Shown one piece after another: positions 2,504 to 23,224 of a stretch of DNA of 28,861 nt; the stretch's first letter is position 1; every line of letters begins with the position of its first letter. Both the position numbers and the translations under genes were made by a program. The notes beneath the pieces are model-generated. The model saw nothing but the letters and a program-made list of their open reading frames with translations, did not search any database and was not told where the DNA came from. The DNA comes from an uncultured Chroococcidiopsis sp. (lineage in GTDB: Bacteria > Cyanobacteriota > Cyanobacteriia > Cyanobacteriales > Chroococcidiopsidaceae): the NCBI GenBank assembly GCA_964248365.1, contig CAXTYC010000052.1, positions 1 to 28,861 of the forward strand, read 5' to 3'.

Positions 2504-4198
2504 ATGAGCTTCTTTGAATATGACTCAGTTACTTCAGACGAAGTTATTGATGCGCCGAAATTAGCAAATGCAGCGTACAAGGACAGGCCAGGACCCGAAG
2601 GCTGGACGGCTCTTACTGGAGAGCAGTTGGGGTTTACCGAAGATTTCTTAGGCTTTGGTGGTTCGTATGATGGAACCTACTTCAACTATGGACCAGCATC
2701 TGCTGTCGTCTTTCAGAAAGGCTCCGAGCTTGCCGTAGCTTTTCGCGGCACCGATATGCCTGTCGATTTTGCAACTTATTCAGATATTTTAAACTTACCA
2801 GGACTTGATTACATAGACTTCTTTGATAAGTTGCTAAATACAGTTGAAGAGTATGCTAAATCGCATAATATTACCAAAACCCTTATTACTGGCCACAGCT
2901 TAGGTGCCGCAGCCGTGAATGAGCTTCGAGATAAATCGGCGGACAGTTATGATGGGTTTTTCAATAATGCTGACTATATCAGCTTCGCCACTCCAGAGGT
3001 AGCTAACAGACAAGACATACTTAACGTTGGCTTCACCAATGACCTAATATTCAAGTCTGTCGAGGAAGCTCTCGATACATCTATCCCTAGAAGCAATCAA
3101 AAATACGATTCTACTACTGACAATCTGATATTTTATAATGGTTCATACATTACTGACAGCTTGTTAAATAAGTCTCTTTCCTTACATGGTGCTGATAATT
3201 ACATACAAGCGGTTGAGCGAATCCTCAGCTCCGAGTTCTATCCTGAAATGAACCGCGGCTCGAATGTGGTTCTAGTTGCAACATCGGAACCTGTCGGAAA
3301 TCCAGACGGTAGACCGATTATCAACAATGAGCCGACCTATTTCCTTGGACGTGATGGGGAAGCGGACACGATTTTCGGTGGCCCTGGTAATGACACGATC
3401 GAAGGGTTCGGTGGGGACGATCTTCTATCCGGCGGTGGTGGAGATGATCGAATCGTCGGTGGAGAGGGGATTGACGTAGCTTCCTACGCAGGACCTTCCG
3501 AATCTTTCTATTTGAAGCCGTTACTTGATGGCACGGTAAGAGTAACTGATACGGGAATTAGTGGAGGTGGAGAAGGTGTTGATACGCTGACTGGAATTGA
3601 ATTCATGCGCTTCTCGGACAAAACGGTGAGCCTGGGAGATCTGCCCATTGCTTCGGAATTGCTCTCAAACGGGTCGTTTGAGGAAGGACAGGCGACAAAC
3701 CTGAGTGGCTACACCAGCTTGACCTCCGTTCCCAGCTGGACTACTAACTCGGGCAGCGCCGCTCTAGAGGTGTGTGCAGCGGGCTACCGCGGCGTTTATG
3801 GCGGTGACGGTCACTGGCTCGACACCCAGAGTAGTCCTGGTGGTATCGACATTAGTCAGGCGGTGGATGTTAACGCCGGAGTGGCTGGAAGGGACGTGAC
3901 CTTAAGCGTTGTCGTCGCAGCTGGGAACATGACATCCCAGAACGAGGATCTCCAGTTCTTACTCAACGATAGTGTTGTCGCGGATATCGGACTCTCCGAT
4001 TTTAACGGTAATCTCAACACCTTCAAGGAGTTCTCTTTCAACCTGATAGCACAGGACGGGTTCAATAACCTCCGCATCAGGAGTGTGAGCACAGACGCAA
4101 GCGGTGGCAGCGATTACGGCTTTTCACTCGACAGGGTTTCCCTGACGATCGGCGACCCGCTCGGCGTGCCAGCGAGTACGCTTACGACATTGGCGTAA
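2504..4198 (+). CDS. Secreted-type lipase (alpha/beta hydrolase) with RTX Ca-binding repeats and a C-terminal jelly-roll/carbohydrate-binding-like domain
   Basis: AFRGTD and GHSLG nucleophile elbow; GGxGxD repeats (GGPGNDTI, GFGGDDLL, GGGGDDRI, GGEGID); GVDTLTGIEFMRFSD; NGSFE opening the C-terminal domain; AGGAG RBS. Confidence 0.82.
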   Translation: MSFFEYDSVTSDEVIDAPKLANAAYKDRPGPEGWTALTGEQLGFTEDFLGFGGSYDGTYFNYGPASAVVFQKGSELAVAFRGTDMPVDFATYSDILNLPGLDYIDFFDKLLNTVEEYAKSHNITKTLITGHSLGAAAVNELRDKSADSYDGFFNNADYISFATPEVANRQDILNVGFTNDLIFKSVEEALDTSIPRSNQKYDSTTDNLIFYNGSYITDSLLNKSLSLHGADNYIQAVERILSSEFYPEMNRGSNVVLVATSEPVGNPDGRPIINNEPTYFLGRDGEADTIFGGPGNDTIEGFGGDDLLSGGGGDDRIVGGEGIDVASYAGPSESFYLKPLLDGTVRVTDTGISGGGEGVDTLTGIEFMRFSDKTVSLGDLPIASELLSNGSFEEGQATNLSGYTSLTSVPSWTTNSGSAALEVCAAGYRGVYGGDGHWLDTQSSPGGIDISQAVDVNAGVAGRDVTLSVVVAAGNMTSQNEDLQFLLNDSVVADIGLSDFNGNLNTFKEFSFNLIAQDGFNNLRIRSVSTDASGGSDYGFSLDRVSLTIGDPLGVPASTLTTLA

Positions 4199-5531: not shown

Positions 5532-5722
5532 AAAAAATCTCCTTGTGGATCGGTAGTAAAGGTATGTTTTATCAATTCGTCATCACAGCTTTTAGCTTCT
5601 ATGAACAAAAAGCTACCTTCCATATACAAATCATAAACGCAGTATCTAATTTGAGCCAAAGTTCTTATATGATTGCATAAAACAGCCCACTGGATTTCAT
5701 TTGGCATTTCGTTCATATACAA
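5528..5722 (-). CDS. Small hypothetical protein (weakly DUF6888-like)
   Basis: Overlaps the holA stop and the start of the next ORF, consistent with translational coupling. Confidence 0.55.
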   Translation of the reverse strand: MYMNEMPNEIQWAVLCNHIRTLAQIRYCVYDLYMEGSFLFIEAKSCDDELIKHTFTTDPQGDFL

Positions 5723-6678
5723 ATTTTAATGATTTGAGTTTGCATTGCCAACCTTTCGTCCCATCCGGTTTTCAGCATAAGTTCTAGCTGTAACAGTATG
5801 TCCAAGCCATTTTCTAGTCGGCTTATCGGTACACTAGCTATTTCTTGTCTAATGAAATATAGCTGCTTGGGATTTTTGATCTGGGCTAGAGTTGCGATCG
5901 CACCATCGTCTGTCCAACCGTCGATTACACTCAGCTTGACCACAAGCCAGCGGCGGAATGAAGTTGTTAGGGTGGCGACGATCTTTAAAGCTGGCTCATT
6001 GCAGTTAAATAAATTCTCTAATAGTTCCAGTGCCGTAGCAATGTTGCTAGTACGTATAGCGTTAGCTAGTTGCAGGTTATTTGTAGCATTGGGTAATACT
6101 AAAGCTTTAACATCAAGGACGTTGATAGTTCCACCGTTGGCATAGAGCTTCAGTTTCTCTAATTCTGTAAAAAGTAAGCGTGTATTATTACCTACTGATT
6201 CGACTAGCAGTTGACAAGCATCATTTGCCACACACACGCCGATTTGGGCGGCTAGAGTACGAACAAGTTTTTTGAGTGCATTAGTTTGCCAGGGTGGGAT
6301 TAAGGGAAACTCCCTAACGAGGGCGTGTTCTAGCAAAAGTTTAACCGACTTGTTTCTACCATCAGGTTTAGTGGTGCTTGTAATGAGTAGAACGTTAGTC
6401 TTGGGAATATTTGGTAGGATGCTCTCTAATTGTTGCAGCAATTCCTTAGAACAAGCACCCACTAGTGAGCTTGATGGTAAGTACACTAATCTACCACCAT
6501 TTCCTATAGGTGGAGTATTAATATCAGCCAACCCTTACTCGTTGCTAGATTTCGAGTCGGGAGGATATTGGGTGTAGTTGAAATCTTTCCACTGCTCATC
6601 AATAACTTGCGATCGCAAATTCTTGACTGACCGCTCCATTAAAAACTCATCTTCGCCCCAAAACAGGTGTATTGGCAT
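5713..6678 (-). pseudogene. holA: DNA polymerase III subunit delta with an in-frame TAA at codon 48 (6535-6537)
   Basis: ATG at 6678 gives MPIHLFWGEDEFL...WKDFNY...SNE*GLADINTPPIGNGGRLV, in frame with ORF 5713-6531 (KPDGR, EFPLIPPW, ELEKLKLY, EPALKIVATL). This matches cyanobacterial HolA. Confidence 0.9.
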
Positions 6679-6698
6679 AATTTTGTTTGTTTTATTGG

Positions 6699-6731
6699 TA
6701 AAAAACAAACCCGTACAAAAGCAGTACGGGT
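6699..6731 (-). terminator. Intrinsic terminator-like hairpin just upstream of holA
   Basis: Minus strand reads ACCCGTAC-tgctttt-GTACGGGT followed by TTGTTTTTT. Confidence 0.5.
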
Positions 6732-7283: not shown

Positions 7284-7826
7284 TTAGCTTTTATCGATTA
7301 CAACGAGGGAACATTTTACTTGGGTAAAACGTTCGCTATTAACAAATAGCCCCCAAGTCAGCTCTACAACTTGAGCATTGACTGTTGTTAGCCAACAACG
7401 AAATTGCCTGTGGAAACTAGTGTTATAGCACCAAGGGCTGTTGCTCATCAAAGACACAAGCTTCCCACCTTTGCTTAGACACTCATAAGCTTTTTTGACA
7501 TGAGAAATCTGTAGCGAAAAAGGAGGGTTTTGAACAATTCGTTGGGAACGATTGCTTAAATTAGTAGTAAGAAAATCAGAGCCAACAAGTATAAAACCTT
7601 GAACAGTTAAATGGGTTTGTAATGCAGGAAGTATTTCAATCACTTCAACAATTACTCCAGCTTGATGAAGAGAAATTGCTAGATTACCAAAACCTGCTGA
7701 TGGATCTAGACAACGCATACCTGACTCGATTTGTGCAAACTCTAATAATAATTCGACTACCCAAGGCGGCGAAGAAAATAGATCCCAAGACTTTATGATT
7801 GAATCATAATTTATCTGTTTCAACAC
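7284..7826 (-). CDS. Small SAM-dependent amino (N6-adenine-type) methyltransferase
   Basis: Motif I LDPSAGFG, motif IV NPPF, LSKGGKLV. Confidence 0.8.
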   Translation of the reverse strand: MLKQINYDSIIKSWDLFSSPPWVVELLLEFAQIESGMRCLDPSAGFGNLAISLHQAGVIVEVIEILPALQTHLTVQGFILVGSDFLTTNLSNRSQRIVQNPPFSLQISHVKKAYECLSKGGKLVSLMSNSPWCYNTSFHRQFRCWLTTVNAQVVELTWGLFVNSERFTQVKCSLVVIDKS

Positions 7827-8595
7827 TTTTTATAGTTTCGTGTTTTGTAGTGGAAGTTTGACTTAGATGTTTGACCGACTCTGTACCAAAAAAAGTGCGT
7901 AAACTATCCAAGCCTTCCAGATAAGCCATAAGTCCACTAGAACCTGCCACTTGGTATAAAGCTATAGCACTTTCCCACTCTTTTAGGCTAGCTTTTTTAG
8001 CTTGGAGAATTGTAATAATGGCGGATGGCAACTTAATCTCTTTACCAGTTTCTAAATCAAGGTGAGTAACTGTTTCTAGTAATAGCTCTTGTTCGCTTGT
8101 TACTTGATCTCCTTGAGACAAGTTAATTTGATGTAGTTGGTAAGCTACTCCAAACAAAGGTAGCTTTAGCTGTAATGCTCTATGTCGCTTAGGATACTTA
8201 GAGCTACGTTTCCTTGGCTTAAACTTAACTGGTGTTTTGGGATCTGGGATATTAAGAAGCTGCCCAAGTGGAAGTGATATTTGACCGTTGGAAGAGAATT
8301 TAACATTGCAATCAAGTTGGCAATGTGGATAAATAATAGGGTGCTGGTGTTGTGCCTGATGTCTAAGATCTCCAAATAGCCGAAGTTTCACCGTTAAAGT
8401 ATGAAAAATCCAACCATAACCAGTATCAGCAATACCAGGTAGTTGGATTTGTGGTAATTTTTCAGTCCACTCTAAAGTTAAAATGCGATCACCTGAAAGA
8501 CCTTCGTAAAGATTAGTAATTCGAGTACCAGGATGTTGTTCTTTAAATTGTTGTATCCAAGCTCGTTGTTTTTTATTGAGGCGAGGTCTAGCCAT
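7804..8595 (-). CDS. Hypothetical basic protein with repeated beta-clamp-binding-like motifs
   Basis: 263-aa ORF in the operon; QIQLP (49-53), QISLPL (105-110), QLKLPL (142-147). Confidence 0.7.
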   Translation of the reverse strand: MARPRLNKKQRAWIQQFKEQHPGTRITNLYEGLSGDRILTLEWTEKLPQIQLPGIADTGYGWIFHTLTVKLRLFGDLRHQAQHQHPIIYPHCQLDCNVKFSSNGQISLPLGQLLNIPDPKTPVKFKPRKRSSKYPKRHRALQLKLPLFGVAYQLHQINLSQGDQVTSEQELLLETVTHLDLETGKEIKLPSAIITILQAKKASLKEWESAIALYQVAGSSGLMAYLEGLDSLRTFFGTESVKHLSQTSTTKHETIKSVETDKL

Positions 8596-8675: not shown

Positions 8676-9236
8676 TCAAAGTTTCCAAAACAGTTTAGAG
8701 ATGCTTTTAAGCGATTGCGGCTGTGGTGCTGCCTGGGTGTGAGACAGTGATGAAGATTGGTCTACGATGAGTGTAGGTAATATCAGTTGTTGTAGTAACT
8801 GTATTTGATAATCTACTGCTGCAACATTGCGATAAATAGTGGCAGGATCAATACTCATTCCTAGCGGTGTAGGAATAATAGTGAGATACTCGTTGAGAGC
8901 TTTTAGGTAGTTTGGGTCGTTAAAGCTACGGTGCTGTATGTGCGGTTTAATTTGAGCTAATAACTGTAGGGCGCGAACTGCTTGTAGCTGTTCTGGTGAT
9001 TGTGGTTGGGACTGTTTATAACCCTTTTGTTTTTTTGTAGCAGCTAAAGTTTGGAGCTTGTTGATAGCTTGAATATAAGAAGCACAATTATAAACTTTAG
9101 TTTGTCCAGAGTAACCAACCCTGCCCCAACTCGTTTCGAGTGTACCATCAATGTTTGCTTTTGCACTCCAATATTTGTTGCTGTTAGCTCTAGCATCAGC
9201 AAAAACTAAATAAATTTCTGAGGATATTTGATTCAT
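8676..9236 (-). CDS. WGR-domain protein with a PARP-regulatory-like helical domain, no catalytic domain
   Basis: NSNKYW, SWGRVG, KKQKGY (WGR), then LNEYLTIIPTPLGM...VDYQIQLLQQL. Likely start is ATG 9236. Confidence 0.8.
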   Translation of the reverse strand: MNQISSEIYLVFADARANSNKYWSAKANIDGTLETSWGRVGYSGQTKVYNCASYIQAINKLQTLAATKKQKGYKQSQPQSPEQLQAVRALQLLAQIKPHIQHRSFNDPNYLKALNEYLTIIPTPLGMSIDPATIYRNVAAVDYQIQLLQQLILPTLIVDQSSSLSHTQAAPQPQSLKSISKLFWKL

Positions 9237-9316
9237 GTAAAATACAACATGATTACTAATAAAAACTGTAACCCTCAGTTTCAAACCAAGGGTTCATCTG
9301 CATTTTGTTGAGAAAA

Positions 9317-10951
9317 CTAACCACGCATTTTAGGTGTACGCAAGCTATTCTTACTGGTTTTACTCGATTCGCTACTACTAGCAGGACGAGCCAATTTTGC
9401 CCATTCAAGCATTCTTTCTACTGCTTGCTTATCCCCAATTGCCAGTGGAGTAATTGCAACGCGACAAGTCTCTAAGTCCGCCAAATTAATCTGTTGAGGT
9501 CGTCCGGCATCAAAAGCAAGCGTTGCAGCTTCAGCAGCTAGGTTTTCAAGTTCTGACCCACTGAATTTATCTGACTTATTTGCGATCGCCTCGATGTATT
9601 CATCTGGTACGCAGCAGCCGAACCGTGCTAGATGGATATTTAGGATAGAAGCGCGTTCTTGTGCTGTGGGGAGGTCAACAAAGAAATTTTCATCAAACCT
9701 GCCTTGGCGCTTGAACTCGCTTGGCAATGCTGTCAGATCATTGGCAGTAGCAACCACAAATACGCCGCCCTCTGACTCTGACATAAAAGTGAGGATGGTT
9801 CCTAAGATTCGTTGGGAAACACCAGAAGTGTCGGCGGTCCCACAGAGTGCCTTATCTACCTCATCTAGCCATAGTACACAGGGTTTGATTGCCTGGGCTG
9901 TTTTCAAGGCACGACGAATATTACCCTCTGATTCACCTACCAAAGAACCAAACATACTAGCTACATCTAGTTTCAGCAGCGGCAAATTGAGAATTGAGGC
10001 AACATTTTTCGCCAATAAACTCTTACCAGTCCCAGGTGGACCAGCTAGTAGTACCCCTTTTGGCAGTGGTAGGTTATGTTGCCTTGCCTCTTGGGTGAAC
10101 AATCGACGGCGGCGTAGTAGCCAATCTCGAAATAAGTCTAGTCCACCAAAAGGTGTTGTAGCTGGTTTACCTAGCTCAATGCCTAGCCCAGCCAACTTCC
10201 GTGTCTTATATTCAACTACAGATGGAATAATATTAGGTGGGATCGCAATACTTTTTTTGCATACCTTTGGCTCGACTTGAAGCTTAATATGCAATCGCAG
10301 AAAGTCGGAAATTTCTTCTAAAGTTAGACCTAAACTTGCTCTTGCCAACTCTTCAGTTTGAGTCTTATTAAGTTCGATCTTCCAGTCGATTCCTTGTTCT
10401 AGAGCAGCTTCTTCTAGGAAAGGCAAGTAATCTTCTAGGTGATTGAGAATTTGATTAACGCCAGGTAGAGGCATTTCGCTGACTGGAATTAGTCGCGCTA
10501 GAGCTTCGTGCAGCTCAATTCCTTGCCCGATCAAAACAATCCGCTTATCGGTTGGCTTTAATAGGTGGTACAAATTTTTAACTCGCGTTAGTACTTCCCA
10601 ACTAAGTGTGTTAGAATTCTTGCCAATGAATGGGTGTATGTCACCCAGGATAAACATTCCAGCTTCATTAAAGCTCTGAATATACTCGAAAATGTGTAGC
10701 AGTGGATCGGCATGGGGTGGTCGCTTGTATGCCTCAAAAGAGTCGAACATAAGTCCACCATCGTGTTTGCTGATTCCAACCAGGTCTAGACCGCTTGTTC
10801 CTAAATTCCAAAAGTAGACTGGGATCTCAAGCCGTGCCACAGTCTCGACCTGAATATGGCGGATGATGGTCAATTCTTCTGGAGCGAGTACGTCAATAGC
10901 AACGATTGGGATTTGAGATGCAAGAGTTGGGATGAGGTGTTCTAGTTGCAT
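9317..10951 (-). CDS. Ycf46-type AAA+ ATPase (degenerate N-terminal AAA plus active C-terminal AAA)
   Basis: GGLD, PKGVLLAGPPGTGKS (Walker A), LWLDEVDK (Walker B), VVATAN, RQGRFDENFFVDLP. Confidence 0.92.
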   Translation of the reverse strand: MQLEHLIPTLASQIPIVAIDVLAPEELTIIRHIQVETVARLEIPVYFWNLGTSGLDLVGISKHDGGLMFDSFEAYKRPPHADPLLHIFEYIQSFNEAGMFILGDIHPFIGKNSNTLSWEVLTRVKNLYHLLKPTDKRIVLIGQGIELHEALARLIPVSEMPLPGVNQILNHLEDYLPFLEEAALEQGIDWKIELNKTQTEELARASLGLTLEEISDFLRLHIKLQVEPKVCKKSIAIPPNIIPSVVEYKTRKLAGLGIELGKPATTPFGGLDLFRDWLLRRRRLFTQEARQHNLPLPKGVLLAGPPGTGKSLLAKNVASILNLPLLKLDVASMFGSLVGESEGNIRRALKTAQAIKPCVLWLDEVDKALCGTADTSGVSQRILGTILTFMSESEGGVFVVATANDLTALPSEFKRQGRFDENFFVDLPTAQERASILNIHLARFGCCVPDEYIEAIANKSDKFSGSELENLAAEAATLAFDAGRPQQINLADLETCRVAITPLAIGDKQAVERMLEWAKLARPASSSESSKTSKNSLRTPKMRG

Positions 10952-11026: not shown

Positions 11027-11242
11027 TTACTGACGGGTTCGTTGTTGTTGAGACTGTGTTGTGCGACTGATTTGGCGGATCTGTGCCTCTGGTTTATAAG
11101 CGCGATCGCTTTCTTTGACAACGCCTAACGCCTCTTCAAAGGGTTGAGTTGCTTCCAGGCAAGAGTGTCCCTCAAAACCTTGCGCTTCGATTTCAACCGC
11201 ACCTGTCGTTTTATTGAAATGGATTAAAATAGCTCTTTCCAT
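11027..11242 (-). CDS. DUF2997-family small protein
   Basis: GAVEIEAQGFEGHSCLEATQPFEEALG; GGAG RBS before ATG 11242; lies between DUF1257 and the AAA gene. Confidence 0.82.
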   Translation of the reverse strand: MERAILIHFNKTTGAVEIEAQGFEGHSCLEATQPFEEALGVVKESDRAYKPEAQIRQISRTTQSQQQRTRQ

Positions 11243-11250
11243 TTTTTCTC

Positions 11251-11700
11251 CTATCGACGTTGATATTGCCTCACTTGTTGATGAGCGGCAAAAGTGAGTT
11301 TTAGCGTATGCCCTGTTTCGGTTGGAATCGGCGTGATAGTACAAGCCCCTAGTTTTTCTTCTAGCTGGGTGGCTTTAGCGCGAATGGCGTGTTCGGCGTA
11401 CTTTTCTAACAATCGATGCGTGAAAAAGTTGCTCCCCAACCGAGGTGTCGTTTCGTAACTATCGTGGATTAAATCATATACACCAGTACAATCATTCCAC
11501 CTAAAGCCAATATCGGCGTGGGTGCGGATCGTCCTACCAAAAACTATAATTTCCGCACTGTATTCACCAAGATTACCGTAGTAGCCAGTCAAAGGTTGCG
11601 GTGTATCAAAGACTTTCGGTTGCAGCTCCTCATCTGTTAGTGCCGCTACTAAATATTCTTTATTGCTGAGCTTTGTACTAACTTGTGAAAAGTGAGACAC
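11251..11700 (-). CDS. DUF1257 (Ycf35-like) protein
   Basis: MSHFSQVSTKL...LVAAL, DIGFRWN...YDLIHD; AGGAG RBS before GTG. Confidence 0.88.
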   Translation of the reverse strand: MSHFSQVSTKLSNKEYLVAALTDEELQPKVFDTPQPLTGYYGNLGEYSAEIIVFGRTIRTHADIGFRWNDCTGVYDLIHDSYETTPRLGSNFFTHRLLEKYAEHAIRAKATQLEEKLGACTITPIPTETGHTLKLTFAAHQQVRQYQRR

Positions 11701-11996: not shown

Positions 11997-13094
11997 TCAC
12001 GCAGACAAATTCATTCGGGCTAGAGCAGCTCTTGTAATGCCCATATCATCACTGGCTAATAATTTTTGCTGTTCTGCTTCTAGCTCGGCTTTAATCGCAT
12101 CAATTTGAGCTTGCAACTGCGCTCTACCATCAAAACTGAGGCTGTCGTTATTTTGTTCTACAGTGCTTTTAACAGAGTTGAGTTTGTCAAACACCTCGTT
12201 TAATGTTCCATCTACATCAGTTCCTAGTAGTGCTTCTAAGCGCTCCAGATGATTTTGAATTCCAGTTTTGATTCGTTTGCTAGCCTTGCCTGCTTCAAAC
12301 TTAGAAAGTGATTTGAGCAAATTGCCTATCATCTGCTGGCATTCAATCCGAGCGCCATTGACTATTTCTTGTTGTAATTTTTGGATATCTTGGGCGCGTT
12401 GCTCTTGGATTTCGGCAACAATCCTAGCAGCGCGATCGCGGTTGATTGCTTCTTGTTTTTTAGCTTGGGCATCAACTAAAGTGGCTTCAACCGATAGTTG
12501 TGATTCGATACTGGGGATGAGTTCAAACGCGCCTAAAGAAACTTGCAGATAATTTTGCAAATCTGCAATATCTGGAAACTTGTCTAACAAAGCCTCCAAA
12601 TGAGTTTCGACTTGAGTAGCACTTAAACCAAACTTTTGATTGGCAAGTAAGTGACGCACTCTAATGGTAAATTCTTCTTTGCCAGGTTCGTATTGGGCTG
12701 CCAATTCTTGTCGTAATTGTTCTGCGGTTTGCTTCAGTGCTTGAAAATTGTTCCAAACCTCTGGTAGTTTTGTAGCGGTACAGGCAGTGCGCCCTTCAGC
12801 CCGTAGCATTTTATTATAGATGCAAGCGCGATCGCTAGCCAGTTTTTGAGCAGCATCTTTGAGCGCCTTAAATAAAGGGATTGATGAGAGCTTGGCTTCG
12901 CTTGCTTTAATCTCCTCTAGTTCTTGACCACTGAATCCAAGCGTTTCCCATTTAATGGAGGTGGTAGCAGAAGTGCCACTGAGATTGATTTCTAAAATGT
13001 ACAAATCTTGCTTCATGCGGTTTAGGTTTCTTAGCCGCATTACTGGCTGAAAATCGTGTACATCTCTTGATTGAACAGCAGTTATTTGGGTCAT
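11997..13094 (-). CDS. Coiled-coil-rich protein, DUF3150-like
   Basis: 365-aa ORF. N-terminal beta-like segment (LYILEINLSG...WETLG) followed by long heptad helices and a KFP motif; first gene of the DUF1257/DUF2997/AAA cluster. Family call is by resemblance only. Confidence 0.55.
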   Translation of the reverse strand: MTQITAVQSRDVHDFQPVMRLRNLNRMKQDLYILEINLSGTSATTSIKWETLGFSGQELEEIKASEAKLSSIPLFKALKDAAQKLASDRACIYNKMLRAEGRTACTATKLPEVWNNFQALKQTAEQLRQELAAQYEPGKEEFTIRVRHLLANQKFGLSATQVETHLEALLDKFPDIADLQNYLQVSLGAFELIPSIESQLSVEATLVDAQAKKQEAINRDRAARIVAEIQEQRAQDIQKLQQEIVNGARIECQQMIGNLLKSLSKFEAGKASKRIKTGIQNHLERLEALLGTDVDGTLNEVFDKLNSVKSTVEQNNDSLSFDGRAQLQAQIDAIKAELEAEQQKLLASDDMGITRAALARMNLSA

Positions 13095-19571: not shown

Positions 19572-20517
19572 ATGACTACAAACATAACACTTAGAAAAAT
19601 GTCACAATTTACATCTGCGTTTTTGGGGCAGGTACAGCACCCAATCAATATTCTCCAAGAATATTTGGCAGCATTTGGGAACAAGTGCCAACCTGCAATC
19701 CTATCTTGGTTGGATAACTGGACTAGGAATAAGCGTAAAGAAGCGCAGTCAGATTGGATTTGGCTGGTATTATCTGACGAAAGCTACCGAATTAGGGTAT
19801 TGTAAGGATACTATTTTTCGCCACCTCCACCATTTAGTTGAAATGGGGGTAATTGAGAGACAAAGAGCAAAGCGTTGGGCTACTGACAGGGCTTGGAAGT
19901 ACCGGATTGTTTCCCAGAAGCTAGCCCAATATATTGATTTATGCGAAAATCAGACCATTGATAGCAACGAATCAGAACATGGACAGTCTGAAGTTAGGAC
20001 ATCGACAGTCGAAAATCAGGAGAATAACATAGGTTCTAACTCAAGTTCTTCTTATGCTCAACCACAGGCAGAGCCAGTTGCTGTTGAGTCAGAAGAAGGA
20101 GGGGAAAAAGCAAATGAGCCAACAGATGAAGAAATAAAAAACGTTTGCATACAACTACGCCGTTTGTCTCCTGACATTAGCATTAATCCCCAGGTAAGAA
20201 GTGCAATCCGCTCTTTCTGGCATAATGTTCCGGCGGGGCTGGCTAGAGTTAAAAATGCGCTTGGTAAGGGATGGTGCAAACAACCGAATGGCGTGTTCGT
20301 CCAAACGCTCAAAAATGGTGCGTCAAGAGACGAGGAGGTAGTGGTGGTTGCCAAAGAGTATCCCCGCCCTACATTGGAGCAGTTGAACCAGGTTGGAGAA
20401 ATGGGGGAGTTGGTTTATACGGGGCTGAACGAGCCAGGATACCCAGAAGTTGTGGCTGTTAATACTGGTAGCGGTGTGTTGCCTTGGTGGGTAGTTTTAG
20501 GGGTGGAAGTTGCGTGA
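19572..20517 (+). pseudogene. Winged-HTH replication-initiator-like gene split by a frameshift near 19782
   Basis: ORF 19572-19805 (AILSWLDNW...DWIWLVLSDE) continues in another frame as ATELGYCKDTIFRHLHHLVEMGVIER...WKYRI, a wHTH with wing. Iteron-like repeats follow. Confidence 0.65.
19943..20021 (+). repeat. 3.5 degenerate 22-bp tandem repeats (iteron-like)
   Basis: GCGAAAATCAGACCATTGATAG / CAACGAATCAGAACATGGACAG / TCTGAAGTTAGGACATCGACAG / TCGAAAATCAGGA. Confidence 0.7.
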
Positions 20518-21270: not shown

Positions 21271-22518
21271 ATGAATAACTGGTTTGATACTGCGCGGTTG
21301 GGGATGTTCATTCATTGGGGACATAGTTCTCAACAAGGATGTGAGTTGTCTTGGCCGTTAGTTGGGGGTGTATTTAGCCTTCCTTGTTGTCAAGATATTT
21401 CAGTTGAGAAATATCACAGCACAGCTAATACTTTCAATCCACAAGAATACAATCCTCAACAATGGGCAGATTTAGCAAAAAGTTTAGGAATGAAATATGC
21501 CATATTAACAGCCAAGCATCATGATGGTTTTGCCCTATTTTATACCCAATCATCAGACTTTTCAATTGCATCTACACCTTACAGACAAGACATTGTAGGT
21601 GAATTTGTCATAGCTATGCGCTCTGTTGGATTGCGTATTGGTCTTTATTTTTCACTCAGTGATTGGCATCATCCTGACTATCCTGCATTTACAGAGGCAG
21701 ATAAACCGTATCGCTTTGACCAACTACCTCAACCTACACCGCAACAGTGGGAGCGATATATCCAGTTTCTATTCAATCAGATTCGAGAATTATTGACTAA
21801 CTATGGTCAAATTGACATCATTTGGTTTGACGGAAGTTGGGAACGCACAAAAGAGCAATGGCAGGTTCAAGAATTAGCCAAAATGATTCGTGATTTACAA
21901 CCGGATATTCTCATCAACGATCGTCTACCAGATTGTGGCGACTTTGAAACTTCAGAGCAGTTTATTCCTCCTCATCCACCTGCTCATGCTTGGGAAACCT
22001 GTCTGACTATGAACTCAAGTTGGGGATATAACCGAGACGACCGCAACTTCAAATCCTCACGTCAATTGATTCATACTCTTTGTGAAGTAGCAGGCAAAGG
22101 AGGCAATCTCTTACTCAATATTAGTCCAATGGGTAATGGAACAATCCCCCCAGAGCAGTTAGAACGTCTCAAAGAGATAGCAGATTGGATGTCTTGCCAC
22201 TCTGAAAGTATACTTGATACCACCCCAGGATTAGAATCGTGGCAATTTTATGGACCCTCGACTTGTAAAGGCAATCGCATTTATCTGCACCTATTAATGA
22301 AACCATTAGAAACAATATCAGTTCGGGGTATACCAATCAAACAAGTAAAATCGGTGTTTGTCTTGGCTGATGGCACAGCACTCACCTACACAAGTCGCTG
22401 TGCAATTATGGATTCTCTGCTCAATTCTAATCCGTTAGGAGAATTAACAATTTATGTACCTGAGCCAGTCATTAATCCCTACGTCACAGTGATTTGTATT
22501 AATATTGACCTTGAGTAA
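21271..22518 (+). CDS. Alpha-L-fucosidase (GH29)
   Basis: WF..ARLGMFIHWG, LTAKHHDGF, DWHHPDY, IIWFDG (nucleophile), INDR, WETCLTMNSSWGY, GGNLLLNISP. Confidence 0.95.
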   Translation: MNNWFDTARLGMFIHWGHSSQQGCELSWPLVGGVFSLPCCQDISVEKYHSTANTFNPQEYNPQQWADLAKSLGMKYAILTAKHHDGFALFYTQSSDFSIASTPYRQDIVGEFVIAMRSVGLRIGLYFSLSDWHHPDYPAFTEADKPYRFDQLPQPTPQQWERYIQFLFNQIRELLTNYGQIDIIWFDGSWERTKEQWQVQELAKMIRDLQPDILINDRLPDCGDFETSEQFIPPHPPAHAWETCLTMNSSWGYNRDDRNFKSSRQLIHTLCEVAGKGGNLLLNISPMGNGTIPPEQLERLKEIADWMSCHSESILDTTPGLESWQFYGPSTCKGNRIYLHLLMKPLETISVRGIPIKQVKSVFVLADGTALTYTSRCAIMDSLLNSNPLGELTIYVPEPVINPYVTVICINIDLE

Positions 22519-22762: not shown

Positions 22763-23224
22763 ATGTCAAAAGAAGGAGGGGAAAAACCAAATGAGCCAAC
22801 ACCTGAAGACATAAAAGACGTTTGCATACAACTACGCCGTTTGTCTCCTGACATCAGCATTAATCCCCAGGTAAGAAGCGCAATCCGCTCGTGCTGGCGT
22901 AATGTTCCCTCTGGGCTGGCTAGAGTTAAAAACGCGATGGTCGCGTTGCGAACCGCCGCAGGCATCGCACAGGGTTGGTGCAAGCAACCGACTGGGTTAT
23001 TTGTCCAAACACTCAAAAATGGCGTGTCAAAAGAGCAGCTAGATGCATCAGTTGTGAGTAAAGAATATCCGCGCCCTACGCTTGAACAGTTGAATCAGCT
23101 GGGGGAAATGGGGGAGTTGGTTTATACCAAGCTGAATGAACGTGGATATCCCTCAGTTGTGGCGGTTAATACTGGAAGAGGGGTGTTGCCTTGGTGGGTA
23201 GTGTTAGGGGTGGAAGTGGTGTAG
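22763..23224 (+). pseudogene. Second, 5'-truncated copy of the C-terminal half of the initiator-like gene
   Basis: Near-identical to 20091-20517 (CIQLRRLSPDISINPQVRSAIRS, YPRPTLEQLNQ, GVLPWWVVLGVEV); lacks the wHTH part. Confidence 0.85.
22934..22968. mobile_element. 27-bp small dispersed repeat inserted into a HIP1 site
   Basis: GCGAT-GGTCGCGTTGCGAACCGCCGCAGGC-ATCGC; removing 27 bp restores GCGATCGC; the insert is absent from the paralogous copy near 20256. Confidence 0.75.

Follow-up and report, generated by a model that had tools for sequence, protein, structure and literature searches.

The window, meaning the whole 28,861-nucleotide stretch of an uncultured Chroococcidiopsis contig analysed here, carries on its reverse strand a run of five genes that closes with P0001, which encodes a derivative of the poly(ADP-ribose) polymerases (PARPs) without their catalytic (ART) domain. 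The genes of this run and the parts of P0001 are:

11997..13094 (-): DUF3150-like protein of 365 aa, mostly helical, whose gene opens the module; no notable Pfam match
11251..11700 (-): DUF1257 (Ycf35-type) protein, 149 aa; PF06868, E 9e-12
11027..11242 (-): DUF2997 protein, about 71 aa; PF11211, E 7e-13
9317..10951 (-): Ycf46-like AAA+ ATPase, 544 aa; PF00004, E 5e-30, with UniRef names of relatives and motifs
8676..9236 (-): P0001, catalytic-less PARP derivative, 186 aa; ATG at 9236
9003..9218 (-): WGR domain of P0001, residues 7-78; PF05406, E 2e-14
8781..8993 (-): PARP helical (regulatory) domain, C-terminal half, with helices at residues 82-101, 108-118 and 138-152; Pfam, profiles, model and fold
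8721..8780 (-): linker, residues 153-172, disordered (pLDDT <50 at 155-170) and neutrally evolving (dN/dS 0.91)
8676..8720 (-): amphipathic tail motif S-L-K-S-I-S-x-x-F-W, residues 173-186, a candidate docking motif; conservation, helix at 176-183, dN/dS 0.10

Domains of P0001 and the surrounding genes

The reading frame of P0001 is open upstream of its ATG as far as a TTG at 9284, and the peptide quoted in an earlier, sequence-only reading of this DNA is identical in every letter to residues 85-151. That reading described the protein as a WGR domain and a regulatory helical domain followed by a short tail. Both domains are there: PF05406 scores 53.9 bits, above its cut-off of 22, so the WGR feature of the PARP1/2/3 clade is present, and the three helices that follow presumably correspond to helices D-F of PARP1. 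However, the helical domain is represented by its C-terminal half only. PF02877 (PARP_reg) matches residues 87-151 at E 0.004 and 17.7 bits, below its curated cut-off of 26.8, and the match covers profile positions 45-109 of 135, so the helical domain is incomplete; relative to full PARPs, as represented by P0041, about 55 residues preceding the retained helices are deleted. The tail exists too, but it ends in a conserved motif under purifying selection, described as 13 residues long and mapped to residues 173-186. The stop codon falls 35 residues past the last helix of the helical domain and PF00644 is absent, so no ART with its H-Y-E triad was found in the same chain. NCBIfam returned no match for P0001.

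The contig also holds second copies of clamp-loader genes, transposases and toxin-antitoxin genes, and because of these it looks like a piece of a plasmid. At 5713-6708 (-), a plasmid-type DNA polymerase III delta gene (holA) is split by one in-frame stop into two ORFs that share a frame, of 57 aa (6535-6708) and 272 aa (5713-6531); contig C12 carries an intact paralogue. Directly after the P0001 gene comes a 263-aa ORF at 7804-8595 (-) with no Pfam, PHROG or NCBIfam match and no copy in 14 related loci. The 180-aa methyltransferase at 7284-7826 (-) matches the methyltransferase part of phage helicase-methyltransferase proteins of 770-3400 aa (PHROG E 1e-38), and looks like a detached piece of a DarB-type protein. 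On the forward strand, an alpha-L-fucosidase gene (21271-22518, Pfam E 1e-91) is flanked by a replication-initiator-like ORF with weak PHROG matches (19675-20517) and a near copy of the C-terminal half of that ORF (22763-23224), and a 564-aa protein (2504-4198) combines a weak lipase-3 match with RTX calcium-binding repeats.

The catalytic-less family: fold, spread and selection

Is the weak match to PF02877 a chance one? We conclude that it is not, because matches to PDB chains, a profile comparison and the predicted fold all agree. A family profile built on 38 relatives matches PDB chains of PARP1 and PARP2 across both the WGR and the helical parts, and its comparison with P0041, a 417-residue bacterial PARP, gives a probability of 99.5% (E 1e-22) with one long deletion. 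The AlphaFold2 model of P0001 (54 sequences; pLDDT 85.7, pTM 0.78) contains a WGR fold, the three helices at 82-101, 108-118 and 138-152, disorder at 155-170 and a last helix at 176-183. Its best Foldseek matches are the chains of 7S81 (E 8e-6, TM 0.58, rmsd 4.0), human PARP1 WGR-HD on DNA, engineered without the catalytic domain; the sequence-only reading had proposed this search and would have been undone by the lack of any structural match. VIA-align against PARP1 541-776 gives Z 12.2 and rmsd 4.2 over 153 residues, a Z tied with that of the WGR-only protein 2RA8. In a viral fold library, the uncharacterised protein 101L of Invertebrate iridescent virus 6 (O55722, 234 aa) aligned over 204 columns (E 6e-5, TM 0.57), and the model comparison makes it a possible viral WGR-HD protein without a catalytic domain.

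The earlier remark that no H-Y-E transferase ORF lies nearby was borne out for the locus and for the source genome (99.97% complete), in which PF00644 has no match. A profile of the ART alone, made from the last 175 residues of 67 bacterial full PARPs, reaches at most 2.6 bits in this genome, whereas control loci score 130-229 bits; in 33 carrier loci it has no match. PF00644 has no match in seven other carrier genomes or two whole plasmids, and is detected in a control genome with a full PARP. Above its cut-off it occurs in none of the 251 genomes of the main carrier family (six have weak matches, two of them carriers) and in 6 of 401 genomes across the phylum, none of these six being a carrier.

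How far does this architecture extend? A family search confined to proteins of 102-326 residues gave 149 candidates, 40 of them significant; 38 of these 40, the query counted, have 185-196 residues, at identities of 51-80%. The search for longer forms returned a single protein, P0041 at 26%, among 8000 candidates scored. An index-free profile search yielded 1233 proteins at E <= 0.001; the best 11 matches (E <= 1e-30) are all 102-194 aa long, and the first full-length PARP appears at E 3e-22. Three PARP-related kinds occur among the best 150 of these 1233 matches, namely the short form, a form of 245-290 residues and full PARPs of about 420 residues. In the medium, or sister, form the helical domain is whole and the tail has a W-rich double motif, and there is no catalytic domain; its 12 representatives leave out other proteins of 245-290 residues that resemble cut-off full PARPs.

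Pooled over 108 non-independent pairs from 32 genes, dN/dS is 0.11 in the WGR domain, 0.11 in the helices, 0.91 in the linker and 0.10 in the tail. The catalytic-less family is thus conserved under purifying selection and is not a recent truncation. The sequence-only reading would have failed had all close homologues been full-length PARPs; the closest relatives all lack the catalytic domain. Recent truncation is ruled out by these short relatives, the low dN/dS and a separate clade: in an unrooted tree built on 91 rows and 141 columns, whose bootstraps are not settled, 11 of 12 short forms and all 12 medium forms are split from 67 full PARPs by a branch with support 99/93. Since the tree is of this kind, loss of the ART from a PARP1/2-clade ancestor would be the parsimonious reading rather than a demonstrated one. 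The catalytic-less proteins form two old clades with divergence of up to 75%. The remaining short-form row, the tail-less P0056 (166 aa, on a 714-base contig), groups among the full-length PARPs, and a scan with it returned two full-length PARPs; a second origin for P0056 was considered and set aside, as its grouping with the other catalytic-less rows is not rejected (p-AU 0.313).

In PLSDB, 45 records match P0001, 39 of them cyanobacterial; in 33 the match covers 80% or more of the protein. The matches include pCC7120alpha of the laboratory strain Nostoc sp. PCC 7120, where WP_010999608.1 accompanies the module genes WP_010999602-606, WP_010999606.1 being the AAA+ protein. By hand count, 54 of the 251 genomes of the main carrier family match at E <= 1e-30; none of six genomes of the same genus has the gene. 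A few copies in carrier-family genomes are broken by stops or shortened, and because several copies are such pseudogenes the gene must be dispensable. Scanning viral contigs with a pattern from the family alignment gave 60 stretches, none confirmed; phage records yielded three matches, WGR-only, to PARP-type genes; and ESM Atlas, searched with residues 80-186, gave only leads below 0.8, to 180-aa viral WGR clusters, none confirmed.

The upstream AAA+ module and the tail

The sequence-only reading proposed a stand-alone sensor. At the level of genes this does not hold, since P0001 closes a conserved module of five genes in the order DUF3150-like, DUF1257, DUF2997, Ycf46-like AAA+ and P0001. DUF1257, DUF2997 and an AAA ATPase with a degenerate N-terminal domain lie in one run, which identifies the module. 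In the ATPase, the C-terminal AAA domain has intact Walker A, Walker B, sensor 1 and arginine finger; its pore loop lacks the usual aromatic residue, and on this account a classical unfoldase role is questionable. The ATPase matches the CDC48 model at E 4e-29, far below that model's cut-off, and its only NCBIfam match is IteA, also below cut-off. The first gene of the module keeps its position across related loci. ESM Atlas links its product at 0.95 to clusters in which 14-25% carry DUF3150, a recognition below the reliable mark and thus a lead; the model of this protein (10 sequences) has pTM 0.45 and fold matches to generic helical bundles only.

Among cyanobacterial plasmid records, the module lies upstream of the gene in 36 of 40, counting a DUF3150-like or DUF1257 match on the same strand within 10 kb upstream and best places only; two of the remaining four have ATPase fragments within about 0.5 kb. 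Conversely, 37 of 48 plasmid records with module genes have the gene and 11 give no match, and by hand count 33 of the 34 plasmid records holding a close orthologue of the ATPase have it too. The ATPase was seen in 24 of 33 genome loci with flanks of 1.5 kb. Modules without a P0001-type gene are widespread in phages, in Bacillus and other plasmids, and as chromosomal paralogues. Identities of sensor and ATPase correlate across 21 loci (Spearman 0.81, with row L037 shortened by the choice of start codon), which shows co-inheritance only. One RNA run gave a 0.06 share of words and 13 contigs of a relative, mostly less than 90% alike, that cover pieces of the module including the WGR part; since contigs cannot show transcription, we do not count them as evidence of expression.

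Several other genes recur beside the module or within it. PRTRC genes (ThiF, A, B), a beta clamp, clamp-loader subunits and RecD-like helicases are found in L023, L024, L032 and L039. On the Leptolyngbya plasmid pLBX, a macrodomain gene annotated as O-acetyl-ADP-ribose deacetylase (L039:6038-6559) is divergent before the module, so that an ADP-ribose eraser adjoins a PARP derivative without a writer. In L031:10735-13413, an intein sits within Walker A of the Ycf46-like ATPase.

Do the other forms also travel with an ATPase? We surveyed 50 viral and metagenome loci, comprising 19 medium forms, 24 full PARPs and 7 fragments. An ATPase lies upstream of the medium form in 16 of 19 loci, the other three having less than 300 bases upstream, and an ART in none of the 19. 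This ATPase is 25-32% identical to that of the window and belongs to a distant AAA+ clade. The module is absent from all 24 loci of full-length PARPs, of which 11 have at least 4 kb upstream and some are near-duplicates. A tail-less short form follows a vWA gene directly in 6 of 6 loci, all from one genus (4 of 4 genomes; the source of its member P0071 is named Crinalium epipsammum), with a MoxR ATPase in all four loci that have enough flank and DUF6744 in three of these; this pairing counts as one genus and one event. All three catalytic-less forms therefore sit behind an AAA+ system, and the type of tail follows the type of ATPase, across few independent events. In L031, where the short form sits beside a Ycf46-like ATPase, its tail is aberrant. 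ART and AAA+ do not strictly exclude each other, since about 1 kb upstream of a decayed, frameshifted full-length PARP (L185:8000-10800) lies a weak remnant resembling MoxR.

Other arrangements were also seen. In L185, by eye, a ParB-like ORF lies upstream of the PARP gene, which adjoins cas-like genes. A 265-aa form occurs in a tandem duplicate (L033:8203-10170), one full PARP has two partial copies of its catalytic end, identical to each other, behind it (L034:9023-11219), and on a Bacillus thuringiensis plasmid a full-length PARP adjoins a SAVED-domain and nucleotidyltransferase pair (L042:9950-14023).

Proposed function and comparison with known systems

Ten residues of PARP2 contact the DNA break, N127, N128, K130, Y132, W151, R153, Q159, K179, K183 and Y201, according to parts of PMC6294510. 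In P0001, seven are identical, one is an aromatic swap and two are lost. Mapped through P0041, N127, K130, W151, R153, Q159 and K183 become N18, K21, W37, R39, Q45 and K68; Y132 becomes W23, and N128 and K179 are lost. The 5'-phosphate sensor Y201 is matched to Y73 only through the end points of the structural alignment, the sequence alignment placing Y73 on W188. N18, N20, K21, R39, K68 and Y73 are invariant in 11 short-form representatives and near-invariant across short, medium and full forms. Because these contact residues are kept, the WGR domain of P0001 probably binds nicks or ends with a 5' phosphate as PARP2 does.

Why would helices be retained without an enzyme to regulate? To our knowledge, the PARP helical domain has been known only as a brake on the catalytic domain. 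Within PARP1, the WGR domain contacts helix E with its loop and helix F; WGR and HD behave nearly as one unit on DNA while the ART moves off; and an HD freed from the ART increases retention on DNA (sections of PMC10038340 and PMC13022067). Self-modification drives the release of PARP1 from DNA (sections of PMC10722394). Since the family keeps exactly the helices that face the WGR domain and has no ART, P0001 may be a tight-binding break clamp without chemical release.

A predicted complex of P0001 with the ATPase scored 0.41, against 0.00 for the best of three controls, and gave no interface; runs agree in at least 63% of contacts and the partner has pLDDT of at least 69. Among solved complexes 116 of 157 reach the mark for such scores, as do 2 of 215 mismatches; of those that reach it, just 18 of the 157 and both mismatches do so with a score of 0.60 or under; passes in this range are more often wrong than right unless the pairing is likely beforehand, so the prediction lends weak support to binding.

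From the observed architecture, fold, selection, lack of an ART and tie to the AAA+ module, we propose with moderate confidence that P0001 is a PARP1/2-clade derivative which gave up its ART long ago and was kept as a DNA-break clamp, wired to an AAA+ remodeller on large cyanobacterial plasmids; its binding to breaks and its coupling to the ATPase are the conjectural parts. The WGR domain would hold nicks or 5'-phosphate ends in the manner of PARP2. The retained helices would pack on it as in active, DNA-retaining PARP1, and with no ART the binding would be tight and without release by self-modification. The tail, on its flexible linker, would then dock on the Ycf46-like ATPase, with the DUF1257, DUF2997 and DUF3150-like proteins as cofactors. 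The docked ATPase could bring ATP-driven remodelling to the break, stripping the clamp or other proteins off nicked or broken plasmid DNA during plasmid DNA transfer, replication or repair. More tentatively, and as a possibility we would not press, this may be a break response in which the catalytic output of PARP is replaced by direct recruitment of an AAA+ protein, through a natural, permanently 'trapped-state' mini-PARP whose tail has been re-fitted to two Ycf46-like clades and lost beside MoxR-vWA. Signalling to the adjacent AAA+ ATPase was already suggested in the sequence-only reading; a link finds support in gene order, in the tail tracking the ATPase and weakly in the predicted complex, while signalling itself stays at the level of conjecture.

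Might P0001 instead act alone, capping or bridging ends and nicks against nucleases or holding them for ligation, and be merely co-transcribed with the module, its tail packing back or self-associating? The WGR domain of PARP2 by itself bridges DNA ends (parts of PMC6294510), the monomer model gives the tail a pLDDT of 71-76, which fits packing back, and genes of DNA metabolism are neighbours (clamp loader subunits, beta clamp, RecD-like and SNF2 helicases). A terminator-like hairpin at 9294-9270 also separates the ATPase from the P0001 gene, in a scan that found 8 terminators against 6.5 by chance, both promoter and terminator scans being at chance level. Yet the sister form with its whole helical domain also has a conserved, different tail, the tail type follows the ATPase type, and the predicted complex weakly favours binding, so we consider solitary action somewhat unlikely. 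The ligand of the WGR domain might have changed to RNA, a specific DNA site or a protein, P0001 then regulating the AAA+ module or serving as its substrate adaptor, and playing no part at breaks. Bacterial WGR domains do occur in many non-PARP proteins and in MolR-like regulators (parts of PMC7824862), and the WGR-only 2RA8 ties for the best Z; as the break-contact residues are conserved as strongly as in full-length PARPs, and the helical part has no known role beyond PARP break sensing, we find such a change unlikely.

The sequence-only reading also offered a decoy or trans-inhibitor of ADP-ribosylating enzymes, which would occupy breaks or offer helix F to the NAD+ site of a host or phage PARP. 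We judge this improbable: the helical domain is indeed the autoinhibitory part of PARP1 (sections of PMC10722394), full-length PARPs are common in phage and metagenome contigs, and regulatory and catalytic parts of PARP complement in trans in vitro (parts of 10.64898/2026.10.17.759577), but the carriers have no PARP catalytic domain above the PF00644 cut-off (0 of 251 main-carrier-family genomes; no carriers among the 6 of 401 across the phylum), and the tail and the tie to an AAA+ gene are left unexplained. Such complementation of separate parts in vitro (same source, in part) would also suit half of a split PARP with its catalytic half encoded elsewhere; neither PF00644 nor the ART-only profile found an ART gene in the same locus, plasmid or genome, none scoring above cut-off in the source genome, 33 loci, 7 carrier genomes, 2 plasmids or 251 genomes, which makes this very improbable and largely refuted. 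Least credible of all is a decaying PARP relic carried on plasmids, to which some copies with stops or shortening could point, given dN/dS near 0.1 across WGR, helices and tail where the linker has 0.9, provided the synonymous distances are right, and two old clades diverged by up to 75%.

The selective retention of WGR together with the helices facing it, without the enzyme, suggests that retention on DNA by WGR-HD is a function in itself. The family offers a natural 186-residue model of the trapped state relevant to PARP inhibitors, and gives a testable handle on the Ycf46/Ycf35/DUF2997 module. If the clamp does dock on the ATPase, this machine would gain its first named client or adaptor, and p97 acting on trapped PARP1 would have a prokaryotic counterpart.

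How does this compare with what is on record? The bacterial PARP architectures that reviews catalogue (parts of PMC5966428, PMC8120803 and PMC4245714) all have the catalytic domain; PMC7824862, in part, mentions phage PARPs, WGR regulators and MoxR-vWA separately; and engineered split PARPs are treated in parts of 10.64898/2026.10.17.759577. The literature searched, supplementary domain tables aside, describes no catalytic-less WGR-PARP_reg family or module containing one. Databases name the protein 'WGR domain-containing', and many members already have PF02877 assigned in precomputed Pfam, so the architecture without the ART is on record there. Against the three-domain PARPs of bacteria and phages (WGR-PARP_reg-PARP_cat; the HaPARP and CdPARP type, P0041), P0001 has a homologous WGR domain and C-terminal helical half with the same invariant WGR motifs; it differs in lacking the catalytic domain and H-Y-E triad, in the deletion of the first helical half (in the short form), in a new conserved tail, in its separate clade and in its tie to AAA+ genes, the module being absent in 24 of 24 full-length loci. 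Human PARP2 WGR and PARP1 delta-ART (PDB 6F5B, 7S81, 7S68) share the fold and the placement of WGR and helices (TM 0.58-0.60, rmsd about 4), but those constructs are engineered, whereas P0001 is natural, has no zinc fingers or basic N-terminal tail, is 19-21% identical and has a trimmed helical domain.

The three upstream genes belong to the families of the Ycf46/Ycf35 (DUF1257)/DUF2997 AAA+ module, which occurs on cyanobacterial chromosomes, in algal plastids and on phages and plasmids, and for which no biochemistry was found described in the literature searched; in the plasmid clade a DUF3150-like gene precedes these three and the PARP derivative, lacking in other instances, follows them. 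As an analogy only, p97/VCP removes trapped PARP1 from chromatin (parts of PMC8760077), again pairing a classical-clade AAA+ protein with a DNA-held PARP; p97 is general and ubiquitin-guided, whereas here sensor and ATPase are co-encoded, and an action of the ATPase on the sensor is a proposal. Other bacterial WGR proteins, such as MolR-like proteins, WGR-ligases and WGR-SMI1/LRR fusions, also have a WGR domain without an ART but do not have the PARP helical domain. P0001 resembles the sensor half of PARP2, and it falls outside the PARPs on two features, a complete helical domain and the ART.
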